Shown here: in pieces, positions 2,731-38,311 of the stretch
Position numbering within the stretch: position 1 is the first letter of the stretch
Layout: every line of letters begins with the position of its first letter
Assembly: GCA_963713145.1 (NCBI GenBank)
Contig: CAVQKI010000005.1
Coordinates: 95,166 to 159,165 of the forward strand
DNA length: 64,000 bases
Direction: 5' to 3'
DNA from: an uncultured Thermoplasmata archaeon
GTDB taxonomy: Archaea; Thermoplasmatota; Thermoplasmata; Lutacidiplasmatales; UBA184
Made by a program: the position numbers and the translations under genes
The notes under the pieces: model-generated
Databases searched by the model: none
What the model was told of the DNA's origin: nothing
What the model saw: only the letters and a program-made list of their open reading frames with translations

Positions 2731-3252
2731 AAGGACTGGGTCAGGCCCACCGGCGATGGCAGACCCGCTTGGGGCTCGGATTCGTGCGGGGCACGCGAAT
2801 CCGCCGCAGAGGGTCCGGAAACGGCCATCAAGACGCGTCCCGGGGGACTCAACCATCCACAGGATGGCAGAGGAGCTATACGTCACGCTCCGGATAGGCG
2901 GGCCGATTCTTACCACACATTGGTGCTAGGATCGTCCCTCTCGGGCCGCCGACTCCCGACGGAACACGCGGGGTCGGAACGCCGTTCAACTCGGTGCGAC
3001 TCCGGATCGAGGGCTCGGCGTCGCCTGGAAGGGCGATGGATGGATCGCCGCCCGCGTTCGCAACCGGAGATGAGAAGCCTGCCACCCTGCCCTGGGGACG
3101 ACAATCTGCTTTTCCCGGAATGCGAGCGGGGCCTGGCCTCAGCTTTCTTGGTACCATTAGAAGATTAGAAGTGTGTCGACCCGCGGGATCCCTGCTCCCC
3201 AGCGCCGTCGCCGCTCGGGAGGTCCACGGGCGGCATGGATCTCCAGATAGGG

Positions 3253-3359
3253 TGGTGCTCCCGGCGGGAGTCCCCCCAGTCGGACTTGCGCCGGCCGGCT
3301 TTGAACCCGCGTCAGAGGCTCGAGAGGCCTCTATCCTTGACCCACTAGACTACGGGAGC
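3253..3359 (-). tRNA. tRNA-Glu (anticodon CUC) with a roughly 30-nt intron in the T-loop (between positions 59 and 60). The 3' CCA is encoded.
   Basis: The minus strand folds as GCTCCCG-TA-GTCT-AGTGGGTCAA-GGAT-A-GAGGC-CTCTCGA-GCCTC-TGAC-GCGGG-TTCAAA[gccggccggcgcaagtccgactggggggac]T-CCCGC-CGGGAGC-A-CCA. All four stems pair and U8, U33, purine 37, G53 and C61 are present. The T-loop is TTCAAAT only after removing the insert. Confidence 0.75.
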
Positions 3360-3556
3360 GCCGATGCCCCGTAGCGGGCCCCCTCTTTGAGCGTTGCCCT
3401 CAACGCCGCCCGCCGACTGACATAACGGCGGTCCTCACGCCATGCGCCACCGGTTCGGTGCGATCGGCGGCGGACCCTTCCCCGCCAATCGTCGGGCAAG
3501 CCGCGAGCAGGGCCGCTCGGCGAAGAACCTATCTGCGGCGCCGCAGTCTTTGGCCC

Positions 3557-4013
3557 ATGAGCCCGCCCGTAAAGGCCCGCAGCGGCCACATCCTCCTCGA
3601 TCCCAAGCGGTCGTACCGGGACCTGGTACGCGTCTACCCCGACATCCACCGCCGTGTCGTCGAGATGAACCGACCGTTCGTGAAGGAGACGGACCCGCTG
3701 CTTCCCCAGGTGCTCCTGGACGAGAACCTGCGGGACCTGAAGGGCGGCCGCAAACCGGTCGGCTACAACCGGCCAGGACCCGTTCGGCCTCCGCCTGATC
3801 TTTCCGATCATGGACGAGCGCCGTGCGGAGTTCTACTTCGCGAAACCGTCGCGCTGCCAGGAGGTCGTGCAGATCACGGAGCACGTCTCCTCGCTGCTGC
3901 GCCGCCGGGGGATCAAGCACACCGTGGAGTACGACCGACTGCCGCTCGGCCCGGTCCGCGGGCTGCCGGGAATGCCGCCGCCGTCGACCGCGACCGCTTT
4001 CACGACGGCGTAG
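3557..4013 (+). CDS. Hypothetical protein of about 150 aa, with a +1 frame change near 3775-3790 joining the two ORF fragments.
   Basis: ATG at 3557 gives MSPPVKARSGHILLDPKRSYRDLVRVYPDIHRRVVEMNRPF... This continues in the next frame as ...DPFGLRLIFPIMDERRAEFYFAKPSRCQEVVQITEHVSSLLRRRGIKHTVEYDRLPLGP. Both parts have protein-like composition; no family recognised. Confidence 0.35.
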
Positions 4014-4033
4014 GGCCGGCCGTCAGGCGCCCG

Positions 4034-7000
4034 TCAGGGCGGCCGTCGGAACGGCCAGAGCGGGCTCGACGGCGGCATGGGCTGCGGGCCGTCGCCGGTC
4101 GCCACTCCGTCGCGCTGGAGCCGCTTCAGGGCCTCGCGAGCCTTCTCGAGCGCGGCGACATAATCGGTCTGGCGCAACGCCAGCGACTCCGCGAGGAGCC
4201 GACGGGCCTCGGTCGTATCGATCCGTCGCTGGTCCGCGCGGCCCAGGGCGGCGTCGATCAGGAAGTGGATGTTCGTGAGCTCGCGGTGGAGGGACTTCCG
4301 CAGGTTCAGCTCCTCCTCGGTCTTCATCAAGAGACGGGCGGCGTCCAGGAGCTTCCCCGAGCTCGCGAGCTCGTCCGACTCTTTCAGGCTCTCCTTCACG
4401 GGACCGACGGTCACGTGCAGCCCCTCCTCCGCGAACGTCACCTCCGACTGGAGCTCCTTGCGGCGTCGGGTGTACGGCGGCCGGACCGCGGCCTCGAGGA
4501 GGAGCATCGCCCGGTCGAGCGCCTTGGAGGCGTCCTCGAACCGGTTCGCGTCGAGCGCCCCCTTCGCCTCGATGAACGTCTGCATCACGGGGGTCGTGTC
4601 GAGACCGAGCCGCTCCCCGACCCAGAGGCGGTCGCGGAAACCCGCCATCGAGCGGCCCATCTCCTCCCGGCGACGCGCGCGCGTCTCCTCGAGCGTCGCG
4701 TCCAGGAGCTGCAGCGCGCCTCCGAGGTCGCGGCGTTCCTTGAACCGGTCGAGCTGGCCCCTGAGCTCGGCCCGCCGGACCCCGTCGCCGGCGGCCGAAC
4801 CGGCCGCCTTTCCTCCCTCGCTCTCGAGCCGGCGCCAGCGACCGTCGACGACCTCGTCGAACAAGCGACGGCTCGCCGCGTCCGCGCGGGCGAGGGACGT
4901 CCTCAGCCGTGCCCACGCGCCGCTCCTCAGCGCGGCCTCCGCCTCGGTGACGACCGCGTCCAGGGGCTCGACCTCGACCGTGAGACCGCCGGCGCGGCCC
5001 GCCTCGACCTCGCGGCGCAGTTCGCCCAGGGAAGCGGAGAACATCCTCTCGATCGACCACCGGCCCATCTCGGTCGCCTCGCGGGCGAGCTTCATCGCGG
5101 TCGGATAGTGGCCGGCCTTCTCCTCGCTGCGCGCCTCCGCCAGGCGCGCTGACGCTTCGCGCGCTTCCGCGCCCAGCGACGCAGCCTCGCCCACCTGGCG
5201 TTCCGCCGCCGCCATCGTCTCGCGGGCACGACGGTGCCCGTCCCGCGCGGCTTCGATCAGCTCGGAAACGCTGAACGCGAGCTCGAGGGCGCCCGGATAA
5301 TCCTCGCGCGAGAACGAGCGCCTGCCCGGCGCGCAGCGCGTCCGCAGCCTCCGGCGTGACGGTTCCCTCGTCGCGGGCGCGGGCGAGCGCGTGCTCGGCG
5401 GCCTCGATCGACCCTTCGGCGATCCGCCGCTGGAGGTCGACGCGCTCGAGCTCGGTCTCGCTGCGGGCAGCGAACTGGACGGCCTCGATCGGCTTCCCTT
5501 CGTCGAGCGCCATCCGCGCCTGGTGAAGGAGGTTCTCCGCCACCGAGGTGTTCCCGCCCGTCCGGCGCAGCTGGGTGACCGCGGCCTGGAATCCGGCCAG
5601 CGTCTTCGAGACGTGCTGGAAGGTCGCCTGGATCAGCTCCCGCTCGACCGTCCCACCGAGGTCGACCACGCGGGCGTACTCACGGGCCGCGAGCAGGCGC
5701 TCGATCTCCTCGACCTTCGGCCGAAGCACCCCGAGGTCGGTCCGGAGCAGCTCCGCCTGGGCGATCGCGTCACGGACCCGTCGCGCGACGCGTTCGGCCT
5801 GCTCGACGAACCCGCGCGTGGAAAGAAGGGCGGAGCGGACCTCGTCGAGCAGGGCCGCGGCGCCGGTCGGCACGGGGAGGGCGATCCGCCGACGCGCCTC
5901 CGCGAGCGCCGGAAGGATCGGGTCGAGAGGTACCCGGCCGCACGTCCCACGTCCAGGTCCCGCTCGAGCGACCTCAGGTTCTCCTCGAGGACCGGCCGTA
6001 GAACGTTGACGAGCTCCTCGTGGAGGAGCCGAACCCCCTCCCGGGTCGCTGCCGGCGGTGCGGTCGCGCGCTCGGTCTTCAGCTGTTCCGCGCGAGCCTC
6101 GAACGGCTCCATCGGCACCGAGAGCCGACGTCCCTCCTCGAACAGCAGCGACAGCTCCTGGAGGCGGCGCTCCGCGTCGGCCCGGGCCTCCTCCGCGACC
6201 AGCTGCTCCTCGAGGGCGTCGAGCCGCAGCCGCGCTCGGTCGAACTCCAGGGCCCGGAACGCCGCCCGCGCCTCGGCGAGCGCCTCCTCTACGGTCGGGC
6301 CCTCGGCGGGATGGGCGGTGGCCCGGCCCGCGAGCTCCTCGATCTGGGAGAATCGGGACAGCACGTTCTGCGCCGCGGCGCGGTTCCGCAGCGCGTTCTC
6401 CTCGAGGCGGGTCGCCGAGCGGTACGCGTCGAGGTGCCGACCCTCCTTCGCGTCCGTCTGCGCCTTCTCGAGCTCCGCGCGGAAGGCCGAGAGGTCGAGG
6501 CCGGTGGTCTCGAGCTCGACCAGTGAGAGCTTCGCGTGCGACACCGCCTCCTCGCTTCGGAGCAGCTGCTGCTGCTGGGCACGGGTCCGGATCTCCTGGG
6601 ACGCCCGCGACGCCTTGACGAAGTCGCCCATGTTGAAGATCTGCTGGACCTCGTCGATCTGCCGCTGGATCTCGTCGCCCGCCCCGCCCATCGATTCGAG
6701 CACGCGACCCTCGGCCTCGAGCGCCTCTACCAGCGCGGAGGCGTGGGCCGCGAAGACGGCCGCGAACTCCCGTTCGGCCCGGTAGAGGCTGTCGACCGAG
6801 CCGACCAGGTCCTGCTTGACGCGCAGCGTCACGTCGGCGTCCGCGAGCAGTCGGCGCACGGGCTCGGTCAACGCTTCGTCCGGGATGTCCGTGAACCCGC
6901 GCTCCATCTCCTCCACGCGGCGCGCGACGAACGGTCCGGCGGCGGTCCTCACCTCGGCCTCGAACCGGGCGATCTTTTCCGCCGCCTCGGCCAGGTCCCC

Positions 7001-8584
7001 CCGGTCGAGGGCGGCCTTCGCGTCGGCGAGGCCCCGCTCGGATCCGGCCGGCAGGAACCCCCGCTCGCCGGCGAGCTTCCCCACGCGTTCGAGAGAGTTC
7101 CACCGCTCGACGAGGGAGGCGACCGCCTCCTTGCCCAGCTGGCGAACGGTATCGCGGAGCGTCTCGGCCGCGGGGCCGACCTCCGCCCGCTTGATCTGTT
7201 CGCGGATCTTGTGGACCGCCGGCTCGAACGCGGCCGTGGGGAATCCCGCGTCGCGGAACCGACCGAGCATCTCCTCGAGGCCCGCGAGCTCGTTGCCCGA
7301 GGCGTCCAGGTCCTCGGTGAGCCGGCTGACCCGGTCGAGGGCCTCCTGGGCCGCGGCCAGCGCCTCGGAGTAGATCTTGAGACGCAGCGCCTCGCGCGCG
7401 CGGTTCATCGCGACGAAGACGTCCGTCGTGTCGCGGCCGAGGCGCCGCGCGCCGGCGATGCGGGGTCGCACTTCGTCGAGCAGCCCCGCGACGACCGTCA
7501 CGATCGGCTCCTCCGCGCTCCGCGCGGCCTCTGCGAGGATCGGGCCGATCTCGGCGGGGCCGGCGGTCGGCAGCCTCGCGAGCGCCTCTTCCACGGCCGC
7601 CCGAGCGGGCGCGGGGTCGACGCCGAAGTCGGAGAGGCCAACGAGCGACCCGCGGAGCGACTCGAGCGCCTGGGTGCAGCGGGAGCGCAATCCCTCGCCG
7701 GCCTCCTTCGAGGCCGCCTCGATCGCGGCGAGGGTGTCGGGCCATCCCTCGGGGCCCCGGTCTGCCTCCTCCTTGATCGCGAGGTCGAGGGCGCCGGTCG
7801 GGGCTCCCAACTGCTCGGCGGTCGTGCGGAGCTCCTGGGCCGCCCGTCGCACGGCTTGGCTACGCTTGGCGGCTTCGGGGAGGCCCTCGGCGATCTGGCG
7901 TCGGATCGAATCGAGGGCGGCCACGAGCCGATCGTCCGTGGAGGCGTCCTCCGCCGAGGGGAGCTTATGCTCGAAGTCGGCGAGCCGGTCGCCGGTGGCA
8001 CCGGAAAGTCGGGCGAGATCGACCGCTCGGGCCCGGGACTTCTCGAGCCGGTCGGCCGCGGCCGCCCGGATCTGTTCGTCGACCGCGGCGAGGCGGCCGA
8101 CGAACTCGGCCCAGGCCGATTCCGGGGCGGGCTGGGCGAGCGCCGAGAGCTCCGCGGAAAGGGCCGGGGAGATCGGGACGCCCATCACGATCAGGCGGCG
8201 GACGGACTCCTCCGTCCGACGCCGCCGGTTCTCGAGGGTCGCAGGAACGGTCTTTCCGAGGGATTCGAGGAGGGCGCGCGCCTGAATGTCGAGCTGCTCC
8301 CAGTCGGTGCGGCGGTAGAGGTCGCGGAGCTGCTGCTGCTTCTCGGCCAGCCCGGCGGGCGCGATGCCGAGGCTCTCGAGCGAACCGATCCGCTCGTCGA
8401 CCTCCTTCATGGCCGCTTCCGCGACCTGGCGCTTCTTGCGGAGCGCTTCCGCCTTCTCTTGGAGAATTCGGGTCAGCCGAGATGAGGAGAGCGGCCCGAC
8501 GCCTCCCGGGACCGGACGTGCGTCTCCCCCCTCAGCCGGAACCCCCCGACCTGCCGGTTGGGGGAAGTCGGGCAGGGCTTTCAT
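4034..8584 (-). CDS. Very large (about 1500 aa) all-alpha coiled-coil protein of unknown function. Two compensating frame changes (about 5940 and about 5300) split it in the ORF track.
   Basis: ORF 5633..8584 reads MKALPDFPQ... and turns to junk after ...LERDLDVGR. Real sequence continues in the frame of ORF 4023..7745 (RVPLDPILPALAEARRRIALPV...ALRAGQALVLA). It then returns to the first frame (FSREDYPGALELAFSVSELIEAARDGHRRARETMAAAERQ... = ORF 4034..5215). No Walker motifs seen. Confidence 0.55.
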
Positions 8585-8657
8585 GCCCCGCCTTCCTTAT
8601 TAATGGAACGCGGCCGACGCGCGCTCGCCGCCGGGACGAAACGATCACGCCCGCCGT

Positions 8658-9047
8658 TCAGGCCCGGGTGATGCGTCGCCGGCCCATCGCATCGATGTAC
8701 TGGACCTCGCCGCCGGGCGCGAGCTGGCCCTTGCTCTCGGCATCGATCGGAAGGCTGAACGTCTCGTACGTCTCGAGGTCCATCAACTGGACCTCCGCCT
8801 CGGTGAGCGAGAGGACCTGGGCGTTCTTCTTCCCGATCACGGGGATCTGGACCTTGTGCTTCACGGGGAAGACGACGCTTCGCTTCGACCCGTCGAAGAC
8901 CCCGATGGCGTCGATCCGCGCCTTCGCTTCCCCGTGCTTCCCGGGCTTCGAAGTTTGGATGCTGATGATGCGGCAGGGCTCCTCCTCGATCAGGATGTAC
9001 CGGCCTTCCTTCAGCTCCCGGACCTCGGCTTGCTGCGTCCAGGCCAT
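8658..9047 (-). CDS. Translation initiation factor 5A (aIF-5A), hypusine-containing.
   Basis: [56 protein letters not shown]... carries the STSKTGKHG-type hypusine loop (TSKPGKHG). Length is about 129 aa. Confidence 0.85.
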
Positions 9048-9190
9048 CGAAACTCTCTCCGAGGGTCCGAGCATCGCCGGACCGTCATAAGGGTTGCCAC
9101 GCAGGCCCCTCGAGGTCGATTCCCTCCGCACGAGGGTTTATTCCCGCCCCGGTCCCATCGCGACGCTAGGGGAGCCCCTCTTCGAGAACC

Positions 9191-12112
9191 ATGACCGACG
9201 CGCGGCCGCCGCCCACCCCGAAGCAGGTGGAACTGGAATCGCGACGACTCTGGGCGTCGCGCCAGGTCCCGGCGGCCGATGGATCGCTCGGTCCGGAGAA
9301 CGGTCCGCTGCTCCGGCAGTTCCTCGGCACGTTCGCTCCTGGCGACTCGCCGGCCCTGGTCGCGCACCGGGCGGTCTCGGCAGACGTGGACGCGCGTTAC
9401 CTCTCGCTCTCGGGACGGCGGGTTCTCGGAACTCTCCGACGCGAAGGCTGGCCGGTCGAGGAACTCGACCCCAACGTCCACGCGCTCCTGGTCGCGCTGG
9501 GAGTATGGACCGGAGGGACGCGCGGAAGGCCGTGGGAAGCGGCCGACTGGCACGCCGGCGTCCAGGGGATGATCTCTCGCCTCGCCCAGCGCGGGGTCCT
9601 TGTCGTGCGCGACGGGCCGCTGCGCGTCTGCACGACGTGCGCCGCGCCCCGGAGCCCCGAGCGGATCATCTACCAGCAGGAGCTCGGCGATGCGTACCTC
9701 GTGCGTTTCCCGCTGCGCGGGTCCGACCCGCCGGTCGATGCGCTCGCCTGGGTGGACGCCCCCTGGCGGCTCCTGGCGACGAGCGCGCTCCTCGTCAACC
9801 CCGAGGTCACCTACGCCATCGCCGACTACGTGCGGAAGGACGCGAGCGTGAGGCTCCTCACGGCACGTTCGTCGCTCGACCGGCTGAAGACATGGCTTCC
9901 GGGCTCCACCCTCACCCTCGTCGAGGAGCACGCCGGCCGCGAGCTCGTCGGCCGACCGTATGCCTACCCGCTGCGGCACGAGTTCCCGATCGGCGGCGAC
10001 CTCGCTCCTCCAGCCGGAACCATCCAAGCGGTCGCGGACGTCGGCGATAGCGGGACCGGGATCGTTCCCCTGATCCCCGGGCACGGCGGAACGGACGCCC
10101 AGATCGCGGAGAGGCTGGGTATCTCCGGGTGGCCGCTCCTGACGCCGCACGGCCAGCTCGACCCGACGCTGATGCACCAGTACCTCCGGGCTCGACGTCG
10201 AAACCGCGAACGAGTTCGTCGCTCGCGACCTGACGGAGAGCGGAGCCGTGCTGGCGAGGCTCCGCGTCCTTCGTGGGGTGCCCTACTGCGCCGTCTGCGG
10301 CCATCCCCTCGTGTGGATGCCGGGGCGCGCGTGGTGCCTTGAGATCAAGAACCTGCCGGCCGAGGAGATCAATCGGTACGCCCGGCTCCTTCCTGGCGAC
10401 CGTCCGATCGGCCAGATCGAGGTGACCCCGTGGCCGGTCAGCGCGACGGTCTCCTCCGTCTCTCCCGCCGCGATCTCGCTGCTCGAATGCGGGCGGTGCG
10501 AGCGACTGGACGCCCCCGAGGCACCCCTCAAATGCCCGTGCGGCGGAAACCGCCGCCTCGTCTCGCGCCGGCTCCTGCCCTCGATCGCGGGCACCTTCTC
10601 GGCGTGGGCCCGGAACGAGCCGGTTTCGCCGGCGGATTCGGTGCGGGTCTACTCCAACGAGCGCCGCCGGGCAGCCACGCTCGTCCACCATCTCGCGGCG
10701 ATGGCCGGGGTGCGCGGGGCAGTGGCGGATGTGGGCCTGACCCTTGTCCCGACCGTGGGCGGTATCGACATCGGCGGGCTGATCGACGCCCACGGGGCCG
10801 ACGCGGTCCGGGCGGCGTTCGTGCGCGCCGAGGTCAGCGAGGGTGCCTCCGGGACGTTCCCCGAACGCTGCCGGCAAGAGGCCGCCCGCCTGGCGCGGCT
10901 CCGAGCCCTCGCGGCCGACGTGCTCGCCCGATGCGGCGGGCCGGGCCGCGCGGCGGAGCTGAGCGAGCCGACGGTAGCCTCCGACCGGGAGCTCGAGCCG
11001 GAGGACCGGGCGATCCTCGCCCGCTGGGCCCGGGCGAGGCTTCTCGTCATCGCCGAGTACACTCGCTGGAATCCCGCGGGCGCCCAGCGGCACATCTACC
11101 GGTTCGTCGGAGGAGAGCTCGAGGAGTACCGGTCGTTCGTTCACCCTCGCCTCGAGCTCGCGGACATGCCGACGAGCAAGCGGGCGGCCCTGCGTACCCT
11201 CGCCCATGTCCTCCGTTCCTGCGCGGTGGTCCTCGCGCCGATCGCGCCATTCACGGCCGAATCGATCCACCGGACCCTCGTCGTGGAGACGCTCAGCCTG
11301 TTCGAGCGGTCGGACCTGAGCTCGGACTCGGCGGCGGACGAGAGGCTCGCGGTCGCCTGGGACCGGTGGCACGACGTTGTCGCGGCGACCGACCGGTTCC
11401 GAAGGGACCGCCACCTCGCACCCACGACCGTCCTCCCTTCCGCGGTCCTGGTCATCGCGAACGACGCCGACGCAGAGCGCCTGCGCGGCGACAGCGCCGT
11501 GATCGAGAAGCTCGCCCGAGTGGCTCGCCTTGAGGTCGGCAGTCCCGGGTCGCCGTGGGCGGGCCACCGGCGACGCCTGGTCGCGGTGGAGAGCGAGATC
11601 CAGCGAGTCTACCCCTCGCTCGCCCGTCCCATCATCCATCTCATCAACCGTCTCCCTCCCCGGCGCCGGAGAGGACGCGAAGTCCGAGGAGCTCTCGGTC
11701 GTGGTCCAGGGCCAGCCGCGGCTCATCACGCCCGCGATGGTGACGACGGTCGACGTGCTGCCGGAGCGGACGGTCCCGGTGCCGTTCGCCCTGGGCGAGA
11801 TGTACTTGGAGGCGCCCGCCGCCAGCCCGGACACCCGGCCCGCCCCCCCACCGCTCTCCCCGGATGCGTTCTGGCTCCTCCGCCGTGTCGACCGCGCCCT
11901 CCGCCGGAACCCGGCGCAGGCCGGCGCGGAGACCCGCCGCGCCGCCGTGGCCGTAGCGGTCGACCCGCTCGCGACCGAGTTGAAGGACAATGCGACGACG
12001 ATCGCCCGCTACCTAGGGTTGGCCGAACTGCGCGTGATCGACCGATCGGAAGAAGCACCACCCCACGGAAGGATCACCGGCCGCACCCGCACGGGAGCCC
12101 CTTGGTGGGTGA
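9191..12112 (+). CDS. Class Ia (Ile/Val/Leu-type) aminoacyl-tRNA synthetase paralogue with degenerate catalytic motifs. Frame changes lie near 10250 and 11660 and the C-terminal boundary is uncertain.
   Basis: CP1/editing-region homology: LRVCTTCAAPRSPERIIYQQELGDAYLVRFPL, DSGTGIVPLIPGHGGTDAQIAERLGIS. Anticodon-binding-domain homology: LRSCAVVLAPIAPFTAESIHRTL. The HIGH position reads PGDSPALVAH and the KMSKS position reads TVGGIDIGG followed by the conserved GADAVRAAF. The three frames were joined by hand. Confidence 0.55.
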
Positions 12113-35115: not shown

Positions 35116-36096
35116 TCAGCCGGGAGCCGCCGCTTCGATGAGCCCGGCACCCTTCGGCTCCGCCCGGACAGCGAACGGCACCGCTCCGGCCCGGGCCAAC
35201 CTCCGGACGAGCTCCCCTTCCTGTCCCACGATCGGGAGCGCCACGATAGAGCCACCGGCCCCCGCGCCGGTGACCTTGGCCGCTTCGGCGGCGGGGGCGG
35301 CGGCGATGATCAGTTCCTCGAGGCGTGGATGCGATACGCCGACCCGGCGAAGCAGCTCCTGGTTCCGCCGAAGGAGCTCTCCGGTCTCGCGACGGTCGCC
35401 ACGGCCCACCGAAGCGATGCCCGCCGCGGCGACCTCGGTGAACTCCTCGAGCAGGGACGGCCCGTCGGGTCGGGCAAGTCGTTCGCCCACGGCACGGACC
35501 GCGGTGGCCGTGGAGCGGGGAACGCCGCTGTAGGCGACGACCCAGACCCAGCGCGGGTCCTCGACGTGTCGGACCTCCCAACGACGCTCGCCCGCGCTCA
35601 CCGACCAGAGCAGATCGCCGTGTCCGCCGTTCAGCGAGACGTAGCCGCCCGCCACGCTCGCCGCCGTGTCGCCCGGGCTCCCGACGCCCTGCGCGGCGCG
35701 TTCGATCTCGAACGCGCGTCGGGCGAGACCCGCCCGGTCAATCCCACCGGTCCCCGCGGCCATGGCCGCACCGAGGGCGGCAACGAACGCCGCGGAGGAG
35801 CCCAGGCCCGCCGCCCTCGGTATTCGGGTCACCGATCGGACATCGACGGCGGGTCCATCCTTCCAAGAAAGGTCGAGGGCGGCCTGGAGGTACGGGTTCG
35901 TTCGGGGCGCGTCGGGGTCGGAGTTGAGCGAGGACCGTGCCCCCGGTCGGACGAACACCTGGGTCGAGAGGTCGATCGCGAGCACCAGCTCCGGGCACCC
36001 GTGGACCACCGCATGCTCCCCGAACAGGATGCACTTTCCCGGCGCGCGCGCCGAGATCGGCAGACCTCGAGCGGGGATTGCTTCCAGGTGGGTCAC
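35116..36096 (-). CDS. mvk: Mevalonate kinase (GHMP kinase family).
   Basis: APGKCILFGEHAVVHG near the N-terminus. GHMP motif PRAAGLGSSAAFVAALGAAM. C-terminal GHMP domain. Confidence 0.8.
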   Translation of the reverse strand: MTHLEAIPARGLPISARAPGKCILFGEHAVVHGCPELVLAIDLSTQVFVRPGARSSLNSDPDAPRTNPYLQAALDLSWKDGPAVDVRSVTRIPRAAGLGSSAAFVAALGAAMAAGTGGIDRAGLARRAFEIERAAQGVGSPGDTAASVAGGYVSLNGGHGDLLWSVSAGERRWEVRHVEDPRWVWVVAYSGVPRSTATAVRAVGERLARPDGPSLLEEFTEVAAAGIASVGRGDRRETGELLRRNQELLRRVGVSHPRLEELIIAAAPAAEAAKVTGAGAGGSIVALPIVGQEGELVRRLARAGAVPFAVRAEPKGAGLIEAAAPG

Positions 36097-36671
36097 TTCG
36101 GCTCCCCAGCGGATTGACGGACACGCTTTCCCCGCGCGGTCGGGACCACCCGGCGACGCGCCCCTCGGAGCGGGGACGGACCGGGGAGGCCGCGGAGGCG
36201 GTCGAGCGTGACGGCCAGGGCCGCGACCTCGCTGTGGGGTTGGTGTCCGATAGCGACGTTGTGGGTCGCGAGAGCGTAGAGATCGGGGGGAACCTTCGCC
36301 CCCCCGACCACGAGAAGGATGTGGCGCGCGCGGCGCAGCGTTGGGAGGAGCGGCTCGAGCGCGAGCCCGTACATGGTCAGATGGACGACAGGGCCGGGGT
36401 GCGCGCGGATGACCGATTTCCAGTCGTCGGTCGGGATGACCTCGAACGCACCGCCCCAGTCCCGGACGACCTTCTCCAGGCGGTCGCGGATCGCCTCGTC
36501 CGGGGGGTGCAGGTAGAGGCGTTCCGCGCCCAGGGCGCGCGCGGCCAGACCCAGGTGGGTCGTGAGGCGCGGGTCGCGGCCTGGCCGGTGACCGATCCGG
36601 AGCACCGAGACGCGAGGCAGCGGCCTACGTGCCTTCGATCTCCGCCCGGAACCGCTCGATCCGGTGGCCAC
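36093..36671 (-). CDS. tRNA (cytidine56-2'-O)-methyltransferase aTrm56 (SPOUT).
   Basis: VLRIGHRPGRDPRLTTHLGLAARALGAERLYL...ILLVVGGAKVP...ATHNVAIGHQPHSEVAALAVTLDRL has the aTrm56 signature. Confidence 0.75.
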   Translation of the reverse strand: MATGSSGSGRRSKARRPLPRVSVLRIGHRPGRDPRLTTHLGLAARALGAERLYLHPPDEAIRDRLEKVVRDWGGAFEVIPTDDWKSVIRAHPGPVVHLTMYGLALEPLLPTLRRARHILLVVGGAKVPPDLYALATHNVAIGHQPHSEVAALAVTLDRLRGLPGPSPLRGARRRVVPTARGKRVRQSAGEPK

Positions 36672-37152
36672 GGTACTCCAGCTTCTCCGACCGCTTGACG
36701 AGGCCCTTCAACCGGGTCGGGCTCATCCCGAGCTCCTCGGCAACGTCCGAGAAGAAGCGGCCCTCCGTCCCGACCGCCTGGTAGATCTTCTCCTCGAGTT
36801 TCGCGTAGTCCTTCGCGCCCATGGTGGCGATCGCGAGCACCTCGGAGATCTCGGCGAGCGGGCTGGTCGTGCTCATGTTGATGGTCGAGTAGTAGAAGTG
36901 GTAGCCCTTGTCCGGCTGCTTCCGCCCCTCCCGGGCGACCCAGCGGGTGTCGATCAGCCGGAGCTTCTCGAAGAAGGCGAGCGCGGCCTTGCCGTCCTTC
37001 CCGAACTCGCGCTCGATGTCCGCGAGCGTCAGCCAGTCCTCGCCGAGACGCTGCACGAGCTTGAGCTTCATCGGCGTGTCCACGGCGCGAAGGATCGGAA
37101 CGAGGTCGCTCACGTCGTTGACGACCTTGATGCGGTGTATGGTCGCGGCCAT
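36625..37152 (-). CDS. Hypothetical protein with a probable winged-helix DNA-binding domain.
   Basis: 175 aa, MAATIHRIKVVNDVSDLVPILRAVDTPMKLKLVQRLGEDWLTLADIEREFG... No confident family. Confidence 0.35.
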   Translation of the reverse strand: MAATIHRIKVVNDVSDLVPILRAVDTPMKLKLVQRLGEDWLTLADIEREFGKDGKAALAFFEKLRLIDTRWVAREGRKQPDKGYHFYYSTINMSTTSPLAEISEVLAIATMGAKDYAKLEEKIYQAVGTEGRFFSDVAEELGMSPTRLKGLVKRSEKLEYRGHRIERFRAEIEGT

Positions 37153-37158
37153 CGATCC

Positions 37159-37341
37159 TCACTCCGGACGGGCCGGCGTACGCGACGCGGCCATAAGTTT
37201 CCGGCGGTAGGAGCCGTAGCGGTCGCTGGAGTCGTATCGCGCGGGATGCGGGGTGCGCGTGGGGGCTCGGCAGGAGGGACAGGCGTCGCGGAACGTGTAG
37301 CGGTCGCACGCCCGGCACACGCGAAGGATCGATTCGGTCAT
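37159..37341 (-). CDS. nop10: H/ACA ribonucleoprotein subunit Nop10.
   Basis: MTESILRVCRACDRYTFRDACPSCRAPTRTPHPARYDSSDRYGSYRRKLM has the Nop10 zinc ribbon. It is in the conserved position immediately after aIF-2alpha, with a start/stop overlap. Confidence 0.8.
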   Translation of the reverse strand: MTESILRVCRACDRYTFRDACPSCRAPTRTPHPARYDSSDRYGSYRRKLMAASRTPARPE

Positions 37342-38115
37342 GCGCGCGCGAACGTCCCCTCCCCGCCGGAAGCCTTGATCGACTTGAGCGCGGCCTCGGT
37401 CGCGCGTTTCATCGTCTCCTCGGCCGTCTTGTACCTGCGTCGACTGCACACGGATCCGGTAGCGGGGAGCGCCGACATATTGAACATCCACCGAGGCAGG
37501 GTCGACCTGCTCGGCCGCCAGCAGGGCGTCCCGGACATGGCCGAGGCCATCCGGGGACCGGTCGAACACCTCGAGCGTCCCGAGGATGGTCACGTGGGGG
37601 GGAACGATGTTCTCGCGGGCGACCTTCAGGAACGCCGTCGTCCACGCCGCCTTCTCGTTCTCCTTCGTGAACCGAGCCGGGTCGGCGGAAGCGACCTCGA
37701 ACGCCGCGAAGAGGGAGCTGTATCGCTCGATCAGGACGGGCCCGAACTGCTCGACCGCCTCGTCCGCGGTCTTGCTGAGCGCCTGGGCGACCTGTTCGAT
37801 CAGGCGCATAGCGCGCTGTTCGTTCTTCCAGGCCTGGATCTTCTCGCGGCGCTGGTGGTCGTTGATCCGCTTGAGCGAGAGGTCGATCTGATTCTTCGAG
37901 GTGTCGATCCTAAGGACCCGCGCTACGATCTTCTGGCCCTCGCGGATGTGGTCACGGATGTACTTGACCCAGCCCGCGGCGACCTCGGAGAGGTGGATGA
38001 ACGCCTCGCGGTCCGCGTACTCGTCGAGCTTGACGAACGCGCCGAAGTTGCGTATCGACGTGACGGTGCCGACGACGAGCTCGCCTTCTTCAGGGTACTC
38101 TGCGCGCAGGGGCAT
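37338..38115 (-). CDS. Translation initiation factor 2 alpha subunit (aIF-2alpha). One frame change lies near 37450.
   Basis: The N-terminal S1 domain reads GELVVGTVTSIRNFGAFVKLDEYADREAFIHLSEVA. The C-terminus YKTAEETMKRATEAALKSIKASGGEGTFARA is in ORF 37338..37550. Confidence 0.8.
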
Positions 38116-38134
38116 CCGAACGATCGGTCCCCTT

Positions 38135-38311
38135 CTAGGCTGCCTGCGGGCGTACGAGCTCGCCGCGCAGCTTAGCCTGTCCCCCGGTCGGAGTGGCCAG
38201 TGTCGCGCCGCAGACGGAGCAGTTCACCGCGGTCGCGGGCCGGCTGAAGATCGTCTGCTCCGTGGAGCAGTCAGGGCACTTGACGACCCAGAATGGGGAA
38301 GGAGCGTGCAT
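38135..38311 (-). CDS. rps27e: 30S ribosomal protein S27e.
   Basis: MHAPSPFWVVKCPDCSTEQTIFSRPATAVNCSVCGATLATPTGGQAKL has a C4 zinc ribbon. Confidence 0.8.
   Translation of the reverse strand: MHAPSPFWVVKCPDCSTEQTIFSRPATAVNCSVCGATLATPTGGQAKLRGELVRPQAA

Follow-up and report, generated by a model that had tools for sequence, protein, structure and literature searches.

The closest described counterparts of the gene reported here are two precursor tRNAs of ARMAN-2 (Candidatus Micrarchaeum), pre-tRNA-Cys(GCA) and pre-tRNA-Pro(GGG), which carry bulge-helix-bulge (BHB) introns between T-loop positions 59 and 60 (PMC3239211). These 59/60 introns are cleaved in vitro by the ARMAN-2 splicing endonuclease, EndA (PMC3239211). 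Reviews state that euryarchaea with α4 or α′2 endonucleases carry introns only at the canonical position 37/38 (PMC4090602), and they associate noncanonical positions with the broad-specificity enzymes that Crenarchaeota, Thaumarchaeota, and ARMAN have (PMC4090602, PMC4033280). Korarchaeum is stated to be the only α2 organism with noncanonical introns (PMC4033280). Here we analyze a 64,000-nt stretch of contig CAVQKI010000005.1 from an uncultured Thermoplasmata archaeon, which we call the window. On its minus strand, at positions 3253 to 3359, lies a tRNA-Glu(CUC) gene with a 30-nt insert at 59/60. We consider it very likely, with a probability of about 0.9, that this insert is a functional BHB intron in a tRNA gene of a high-GC soil Thermoplasmata archaeon.

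A tRNA-Glu(CUC) gene interrupted in the T loop

The 5′ part of the gene reads GCUCCCG UA GUCU AGUGGGUCA AGGA U A GAGGC CUCUCGA GCCUC UGAC GCGGG UUCAAA, and the 3′ part reads GCCGGCCGGCGCAAGUCCGACUGGGGGGAC followed by U CCCGC CGGGAGC A CCA. GCCGGCCGGCGCAAGUCCGACUGGGGGGAC is the insert, exactly 30 nt at 3270 to 3299, between T-loop positions 59 and 60. Its excision leaves a T stem with five of five pairs (GCGGG/CCCGC), the loop UUCAAAU, which is a typical archaeal T loop, an acceptor stem with seven of seven Watson-Crick pairs, and the discriminator A. The D arm is GUCU-AGUGGGUCA-AGGA(U). The anticodon arm is GAGGC-CUCUCGA-GCCUC, with anticodon CUC and G37. An earlier note on this DNA had proposed a tRNA-Glu(CUC) whose T loop becomes TTCAAAT and whose T stem closes only when an insert of about 30 nt at 59/60 is removed. 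The exact 30-nt excision bears this out for the stems, and the gene's identity and the site of the insert are upheld by the sequence as read, by the best BHB junction, and by same-site inserts in relatives. On sequence grounds, a 12-nt exact complement to the 5′ strands of the T and acceptor stems, at the right spacing, is not chance. The same architecture was found again at 108 other loci. The parts of the gene are as follows.

3300 to 3359, minus strand: exon 1, with the acceptor 5′ strand (3353 to 3359), D arm, anticodon arm, variable region, T-stem 5′ strand (3306 to 3310), and T-loop nucleotides 54 to 59 (3300 to 3305); read from the sequence, and the part recognized by ARAGORN and Rfam
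3322 to 3324, minus strand: anticodon CUC in the loop C-U-CUC-G-A; from ARAGORN (position 36) and the Rfam alignment
3270 to 3299, minus strand: putative intron GCCGGCCGGCGCAAGUCCGACUGGGGGGAC between 59 and 60; its excision restores the cloverleaf, it has the best BHB junction, and homologous inserts of 26 to 32 nt occur at 107 other loci
3256 to 3269, minus strand: exon 2, with U60, the T-stem 3′ strand CCCGC (3264 to 3268), the acceptor 3′ strand CGGGAGC (3257 to 3263), and A73 (3256); a perfect complement to the exon 1 stems, and invariant in relatives
3253 to 3255, minus strand: CCA encoded directly after the discriminator; from the sequence (ACCA at 3253 to 3256)

Exon 1 is the same in about 110 relatives, one extra D-loop G apart. 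The D loop at 3341 to 3343 (minus strand) reads GGG in the window and GG in all other recovered Thermoplasmata copies, including the closest of the listed loci (L072). Either the D loop truly is one nucleotide longer here, or the assembly has a homopolymer error.

Placement of the junction and geometry of the BHB motif

To place the junction, we enumerated every single excision of 10 to 49 nt and ran each product through ARAGORN. Many excisions of about 30 nt yielded a full-length tRNA-Glu(CUC), because the intron start, GCCGGCCGG, resembles the start of exon 2, UCCCGCCGG. Therefore, ARAGORN alone cannot fix the junction, and a BHB scan was needed. All junction pairs were scored for flanking helices, a 4-position central helix, and a 3-nt bulge 3′ of each strand of that helix, with the cut following the bulge's second nucleotide. 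The top score among them fell exactly at 59/60, with an outer helix of 5 bp, a central helix with three of four positions paired, 3-nt bulges, and an inner helix of 4 bp. The outer helix, h, is the 5-bp T stem. The sole junction that combines the 7-nt loop UUCAAAU with the best BHB is 59/60, and by inspection neighboring registers fail in the central helix. We rejected registers 58/59 and 60/61 to 62/63 as well as excisions that keep CCGGC as the T stem, which had either a mismatched T stem or no central helix. The elements of the motif are as follows.

3302 to 3305, minus strand: 5′ strand of the BHB central helix, U54 U55 C56 A57; pairs with intron positions −3 to −6
3272 to 3275, minus strand: 3′ strand of the central helix, intron −6 to −3, GGGG in the window; from the BHB scan, with GGAA in 66/105 and UGAA in 17/105 distinct introns
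3299 to 3301, minus strand: 5′ bulge A58 A59 G(+1), with the predicted 5′ splice site between 3300 and 3299; from the BHB geometry, with AAN in 105/105 distinct introns
3269 to 3271, minus strand: 3′ bulge A(−2) C(−1) U60, with the predicted 3′ splice site between 3270 and 3269; ACU in 81/105 distinct introns and 3 nt in all
3276 to 3298, minus strand: intron hairpin h′, with C+2:G−7, C+3:G−8, G+4:U−9, G+5:C−10, a C·A mismatch, three more pairs, and a 7-nt loop; from the BHB scan, family covariation, and RNAalifold

Conservation and covariation of the insert

We scanned species-representative genomes with a 5′-exon pattern that assumed nothing about the intron and recovered at least 119 loci; the counts of loci and of intron-bearing and intronless genes given here and below cover the matches listed from that scan. 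There were 116 evaluable tRNA-Glu(CUC) genes, namely 115 from reference-genome loci and the window's own. The matched loci are almost all from soil or peat metagenome-assembled genomes (MAGs) labeled "Thermoplasmata archaeon," Ca. Lutacidiplasma silvani included. An insert at 59/60 was present in 109 of the 116 genes. It measured 26 to 32 nt in 108 of them, the window's among these, and 50 nt in one; seven genes had none. Every insert lies exactly between 59 and 60, and all 109 excisions gave 5/5 T stems and 7/7 acceptor stems. The introns comprise 105 distinct sequences, whereas the acceptor stem, D arm, T stem, and exon 2, none of which was fixed by the search pattern, are invariant. Five intronless Thermoplasmata orthologues have exons that match the window's except for one D-loop G, and they equal the predicted spliced product. 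The closest locus among the matches listed, L072, has 91% identity to the window over 2994 to 9705 and an identical intron.

The inserts vary in a patterned way. In every scorable sequence (104 distinct, with one alignment gap at 55:−4), 54:−3 and 55:−4 are U:A or U:G and 56:−5 is C:G. In the motif comparison of the distinct introns, these three pairs are canonical in 105/105; intron position −5 is always G, and −3 and −4 are A or G. Both bulges are 3 nt in all 105. The inner helix h′ has a mean run of 5.3 bp, compared with 0.6 in shuffles, and reaches at least 4 bp in 71% of the introns but in only 2% of the shuffles. RNAalifold, given a MAFFT alignment of 104 pre-tRNAs and no model, paired both the acceptor stem and the T stem across the insert and predicted the intron hairpin, with compensatory changes in six pairs. 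When a full cloverleaf-plus-BHB model was applied to the 104-sequence alignment, 94.1% of cells were paired, versus 37 to 58% with the partners slid. The covariation score was 0.118, versus 0.044 in shuffles, and none of 500 shuffles reached 0.118. In h′, every one of the eight pairs shows substitutions on each side. Changes in the central helix affect one side or none, which is expected because its partner strand is the invariant T loop. By this comparison, what is conserved in the intron is only the set of features that a BHB needs, and the intron is ancestral to a large clade of which more than 100 species-level genomes are sampled.

Across the family, the intron and exon 2 begin alike: their initial 9 nt share a mean of 5.4 identities out of 9 versus 3.0 when the introns are shuffled, and only in register; one locus (L101) has 9/9. 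This likeness may go back to a duplication of exon 2, to an alternative pseudo-T arm, or to a chance match in GC-rich sequence that one ancestor passed on. Two MAGs have a pair of tRNA-Glu(CUC) genes with different 59/60 introns: JOPF047 (L043 and L119) and SMAG_U15060 (L039 and L106). These pairs are either true duplications or bins that mix two strains.

The encoded 3′ CCA behaves differently from the intron. It had been put forward as a feature of the gene, and it is present at 3253 to 3255 and in L072. However, it is not conserved: the discriminator is followed by CCA in only 18 of the 116 loci and by CCT in 51. It is thus most likely an incidental product of a C-rich trailer and not a property of the lineage.

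Signs that the gene is used

The sequence upstream of the gene contains one further feature.

3383 to 3398, minus strand: promoter-like A-rich block, with GGCAAC at −39 to −34 and CUCAAAGAG at −32 to −24 (BRE/TATA-like); from position and composition

When 106 upstream regions were anchored at the tRNA 5′ end, they shared a block, GAAA..CTCAAAGAG, at −38 to −24 that is conserved against a background of about 75 to 80% GC. This is where an archaeal BRE/TATA promoter would lie, and its position and composition suggest that role. GAG makes up 77% of the Glu codons in confident open reading frames (ORFs) of the window, and therefore tRNA-Glu(CUC) reads the main Glu codon. Among the matches listed, no genome had both an intron-bearing and an intronless tRNA-Glu(CUC). 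In that list, a complete 2.18-Mb chromosome (L014, OY970259.1) is represented by one match, as are several contigs of 0.7 to 1.8 Mb, and each such match is intron bearing.

A proposed splicing pathway

From the gene structure, BHB geometry, conservation, and covariation described above, we infer how cleavage and ligation may proceed and what architecture the enzyme may have. In the precursor, the T stem would serve as the outer helix of the BHB motif, and the 4-position central helix would arise from pairing of T-loop nucleotides 54 to 57 with the final portion of the intron. The two 3-nt bulges (A58 A59 G+1 and A−2 C−1 U60) would present the splice sites, with the body of the intron forming the inner hairpin. 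The archaeal splicing endonuclease EndA would cut in both bulges, and an RtcB-type ligase would join the exons into a tRNA body of 74 nt, or 77 nt with CCA, with the loop UUCAAAU. The predicted exon-exon junction joins UUCAAA to UCCCGC, that is, ...GCGGGUUCAAA to UCCCGCCGGGAGCA. The T loop would fold and be modified only after splicing.

Archaeal EndA recognizes BHB motifs independently of the mature tRNA domain (PMC8707768). Within the Thermoplasmata, Ferroplasma has a homodimeric EndA of 288 residues that cuts minimal BHB substrates (PMC8707768), and "Cluster II" Euryarchaeota are reported to encode α′2 EndA only (PMC5829648). By analogy with these other Thermoplasmata, the enzyme expected here would be a homodimeric α′2 EndA. 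The family-wide retention of both bulges and both flanking helices fits an enzyme of the strict type.

The window also contains, at 36093 to 36707 on the minus strand, an ORF for aTrm56, the methyltransferase for 2′-O-methylation of T-loop C56. Because C56 is part of the BHB central helix, Cm56 formation on tRNA-Glu(CUC) would presumably have to wait for splicing.

Evidence against a functional intron and alternative explanations

Several points weigh against a functional BHB intron. The central helix in the window is weak: it consists of U54·G, U55·G, C56:G, and A57·G, that is, two G·U pairs, one G:C pair, and one A·G mismatch. Across the family, the fourth position, A57:−6, is A·G in 80/104, A-U in 20/104, and A·A or A·C in 4/104. 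The motif is near-strict and not a textbook 3-4-3. Nearest-neighbor folding keeps the T stem in 105/105 sequences and the intron hairpin in 94/105, but it opens the central helix, which formed in only 4/105. In five examples, the BHB model lay 0.3 to 3 kcal/mol above the minimum free energy, and the whole 107-nt region of the window folds no better than shuffles (z = −0.55). On the comparative side, the search pattern fixed the anticodon arm and the 5′ half of the T loop, so the invariance of the exons is partly built in, and relatedness among the sequences inflates the covariation counts. Finally, EndA was not found in the window or in the 141 collected loci by tblastn with the M. jannaschii EndA as query. 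Used as a protein query, the catalytic unit of A. fulgidus EndA matched 48 proteins, mostly of the α4 type from Aenigmarchaeota, and none attributable to the window's lineage.

Thermodynamics alone neither finds nor refutes the BHB, and a BHB motif can form in the window's gene, with a weak central helix. The idea in the earlier note that the junction would fold as a BHB is supported, with a qualification: the best solution of the geometry scan lies exactly at 59/60, whereas the central helix is open in minimum-free-energy folds.

The alternative that survives best, although we regard it as very unlikely, is that the insert is not spliced in this manner and is either kept as a structured extra arm of the T loop or removed without EndA and a BHB. 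A central helix that is not the thermodynamically preferred fold is what this alternative would lead one to see. However, the conserved parts of the insert are those that a BHB needs, namely a 3′ intron strand complementary to U54-C56, two 3-nt bulges, and flanking helices, while the sequence of the hairpin itself varies freely. The T-loop fold and its contact with the D loop are common to every known functional tRNA, and a 30-nt hairpin retained at 59/60 would disrupt both. Moreover, 59/60 BHB introns have been experimentally cleaved in ARMAN-2 (PMC3239211).

Somewhat less probable again is a pseudogene, in which a 30-bp insertion or duplication has put a tRNA-Glu(CUC) out of function. The likeness between GCCGGCCGG at the 5′ end of the intron and UCCCGCCGG at the start of exon 2 could have been produced by a partial duplication, and the weakness of the window's central helix points the same way. 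A decayed gene does not explain why 109 of the 116 evaluable loci have the insert at one site, in 105 sequence variants, with exons that stay invariant and a hairpin that covaries. Nor does it account for the conserved promoter-like block and for GAG as the main Glu codon, and no intact second copy occurs in the sampled genomes among the matches listed, the complete chromosome included.

tRNA 3′ halves are common integration targets, and the insert might be the scar of an element that integrated at the tRNA gene. We find this improbable in the extreme. Homology to L072 does end about 260 bp downstream of the tRNA, beside ORFs without Pfam, PHROGs, or NCBIfam matches, and the intron 5′ end resembles exon 2. 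But an attachment-site search for a repeat of the tRNA 3′ end elsewhere in the window returned only the gene itself, and a scan of viral contigs for the uninterrupted sequence from the T arm to the 3′ end gave 0 hits. A scar would also not keep a covarying BHB geometry across more than 100 species. Integration could at most describe the ancient origin of the intron, not its present nature.

Hardly credible at all is that the real tRNA is an intronless 73-nt call at 3287 to 3359 and that the downstream complement is coincidental: both ARAGORN and Rfam make that call, Rfam at 36.7 bits against a gathering score of 29, but its acceptor and T stems are mismatched and it has a deletion, its 3′ half is intron sequence that varies freely in relatives, its equivalents there score 25.9 to 28 bits or are gone, and the true exon 2 is invariant and yields 68.2 bits once joined.

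tRNA finders misread the unspliced gene

ARAGORN and Rfam RF00005 report the window's gene on the minus strand as an intronless 73-nt tRNA-Glu(CUC) (Rfam gathering threshold, 29). In this false call, the first 13 nt of the intron serve as the 3′ half. The false 3′ end falls inside the intron because the intron's first 9 nt resemble the start of exon 2, and the Rfam alignment has mismatched acceptor and T stems and one deletion. Across the family, ARAGORN made no call in 43 of the 109 unspliced genes and set wrong bounds in the other 66, whereas it called Glu(CUC) in 116/116 spliced sequences. The five intronless Thermoplasmata orthologues score 65.5 to 68.2 bits with RF00005; unspliced genes score 25.9 to 37.5 bits, some of them under the gathering score. 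Therefore, intron-blind tools misreport the tRNA complements and the completeness of these MAGs. tRNAscan-SE 2.0 includes models for noncanonical introns (PMC8450103).

No other tRNA was found in the 64-kb window by ARAGORN or by Rfam at both thresholds, a permissive scan included, and a dedicated scan of the window and the collected loci found no tRNA with a T-loop insert elsewhere. The earlier note was thus right that this is the only tRNA in the window. Its description of the gene as invisible went too far, since the gene is called by both programs, albeit with a wrong 3′ boundary. Its view that such a gene is lineage restricted and easily missed by annotators agrees with the predominance of Thermoplasmata MAGs among the matches listed, with the 109/109 genes that ARAGORN misses or misbounds and with the relatives that drop below the Rfam threshold.

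Genomic surroundings

The window, from a Lutacidiplasmatales-like soil archaeon, has a GC content of about 68%, and Lutacidiplasmatales (TMEG) have been described with about 69% (PMC9287336). The gene for aIF5A is a neighbor of the tRNA gene, at 8658 to 9137 on the minus strand. Directly upstream of the tRNA are two large minus-strand ORFs, 4034 to 5632 and 5633 to 8596, that are syntenic with tRNA-Glu(CUC) in about 90 of the matched loci and in roughly 70 to 97 of the related MAGs. Neither has a Pfam hit; the only match for 4034 to 5632 is a subthreshold one in NCBIfam, to a SoxAX-binding protein (E = 7e-8). Even in the intronless MAGs L012 and L033, the segment 3566 to 3937, which separates the tRNA promoter region from the upstream ORF, is conserved at 70 to 72% identity; it may be a small gene or the end of its neighbor. 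On the other side, homology of the window to L072 stops about 260 bp past the tRNA 3′ end, and positions 1 to 2994 have a GC content of 64.9% versus about 70%. No match in Pfam, PHROGs, or NCBIfam was found for the ORFs in 1 to 2994, a stretch beside the tRNA that may be variable or acquired.

The rest of the window is an ordinary archaeal chromosome, with genes for aIF2alpha/Nop10, L1, P1, fibrillarin, aTrm56, PPK2, and Amt. An ORF of about 390 aa at 9170 to 10342 (plus strand) matches only about 158 to 348 of the isoleucyl-tRNA synthetase model (TIGR00392, E = 7.7e-14), far under the full-length cutoff; it may be a free-standing domain or a misframed fragment. The ORF at 37159 to 38223 (minus strand) contains Pfam S1, EIF_2_alpha, and Nop10p in one stop-free frame and is Arg/Gly rich between the aIF2alpha core and Nop10, which suggests that the two are fused or that the 3′ end of aIF2alpha has a frameshift or assembly error.

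T-loop introns in other archaea

A Methanosarcinales MAG (L001, CAZFJK010000002.1, about 2559 to 2690) encodes a different tRNA-Glu(CUC), with acceptor strand GCCCCGG and a 50-nt intron at 59/60. Its central helix is fully canonical, with 4/4 bp (UUCA/UGAA), and the gene was not reported by ARAGORN or Rfam. Therefore, the 59/60 intron is not unique to one class. We also scanned metagenomes for 59/60 introns in other tRNAs, with a narrow pattern that excluded the Glu T stem. Among the 22 hits, a few were real introns, and these were in lower-GC archaea; the rest were chance matches or intact tRNAs. The scan found no 59/60 introns in other tRNAs of high-GC Thermoplasmata, which is a weak negative given the narrow pattern.

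Five metagenome contigs with 35 to 52% GC (L123, L126, L130, L135, and L139) have other tRNAs with 28- to 29-nt inserts at 59/60 that end in GGGAAAC, with U following the junction. Excision turns the L123 gene into a tRNA-Leu(CAG). One tRNA, with acceptor 3′ strand UCGGCCC and an encoded CCA, occurs in both L126 and L130, probably with another intron farther upstream.

Implications and comparison with known systems

The 59/60 intron is a clean phylogenetic marker for an uncultured clade. The more than 100 species-level genomes of these abundant soil Thermoplasmata are also a natural test set for the question of whether position or motif strictness limits a homodimeric enzyme. A bolder proposal, which we think unlikely, is that the T-loop intron is no neutral passenger and that selection keeps it order-wide in soil Thermoplasmata and, independently or anciently, in Methanosarcinales, in the tRNA for the main Glu codon and under an expected strict homodimeric EndA. 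If so, the architecture of the endonuclease would not be what confines euryarchaeal introns to 37/38. The intron could also do something of its own: it might split the segment from the T arm to the 3′ end that integrating elements target, or the major Glu tRNA, with its T-loop modifications such as Cm56, might depend on splicing for its maturation.

That noncanonical 59/60 introns occur in archaeal tRNAs had been stated in the earlier note, and they are indeed known in ARMAN-2 and Thermoproteales. The window's family shares with ARMAN-2 the 59/60 site, the T stem as outer helix, and, as we propose, removal by an archaeal splicing endonuclease. The ARMAN-2 tRNA-Pro 59/60 intron is described as a strict hBHBh′ motif (PMC3239211). 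However, ARMAN-2 belongs to the DPANN and not to the Thermoplasmata, and other isoacceptors are affected. Its tRNA-Cys intron is a relaxed hBH of 13 nt that needs a broad-specificity ε2 enzyme, whereas the introns of the window's family are 26 to 32 nt, have both bulges, and are clade-wide.

Canonical 37/38 introns of euryarchaea, such as those of haloarchaeal tRNA-Trp and tRNA-Met, have the 3-4-3 geometry that the motif here nearly matches, likewise with a bulge 3′ of each strand, and use EndA and RtcB, as is predicted for the window's gene. The difference lies in the position and the partners. In the canonical introns, the outer helix and the central helix come from the anticodon stem and loop; in the window's gene, this role would fall to the T stem and T-loop nucleotides 54 to 57. 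The nuclear tRNAs of Cyanidioschyzon merolae likewise have ectopic T-arm introns with a BHB-like junction (PMC3728597, PMC9602550), but these are eukaryotic, lie at other positions, and involve another enzyme complex, and no evolutionary link is implied.

Thermoproteales, other Crenarchaeota, and Thaumarchaeota also have BHB introns outside the anticodon loop, the T arm included, that are lineage restricted and hard for standard finders (PMC4033280, PMC4090602, PMC8450103). These organisms have a heterotetrameric (αβ)2 EndA with a specific loop and many introns per genome, often with relaxed motifs. In contrast, the window's family has a single conserved near-strict intron, in a euryarchaeal class whose relatives have α′2 EndA. 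We found no noncanonical-position intron fixed across a euryarchaeal order in the literature searched. What is new here is the order-wide fixation of a 59/60 intron in a euryarchaeal lineage said to have canonical-position introns only.

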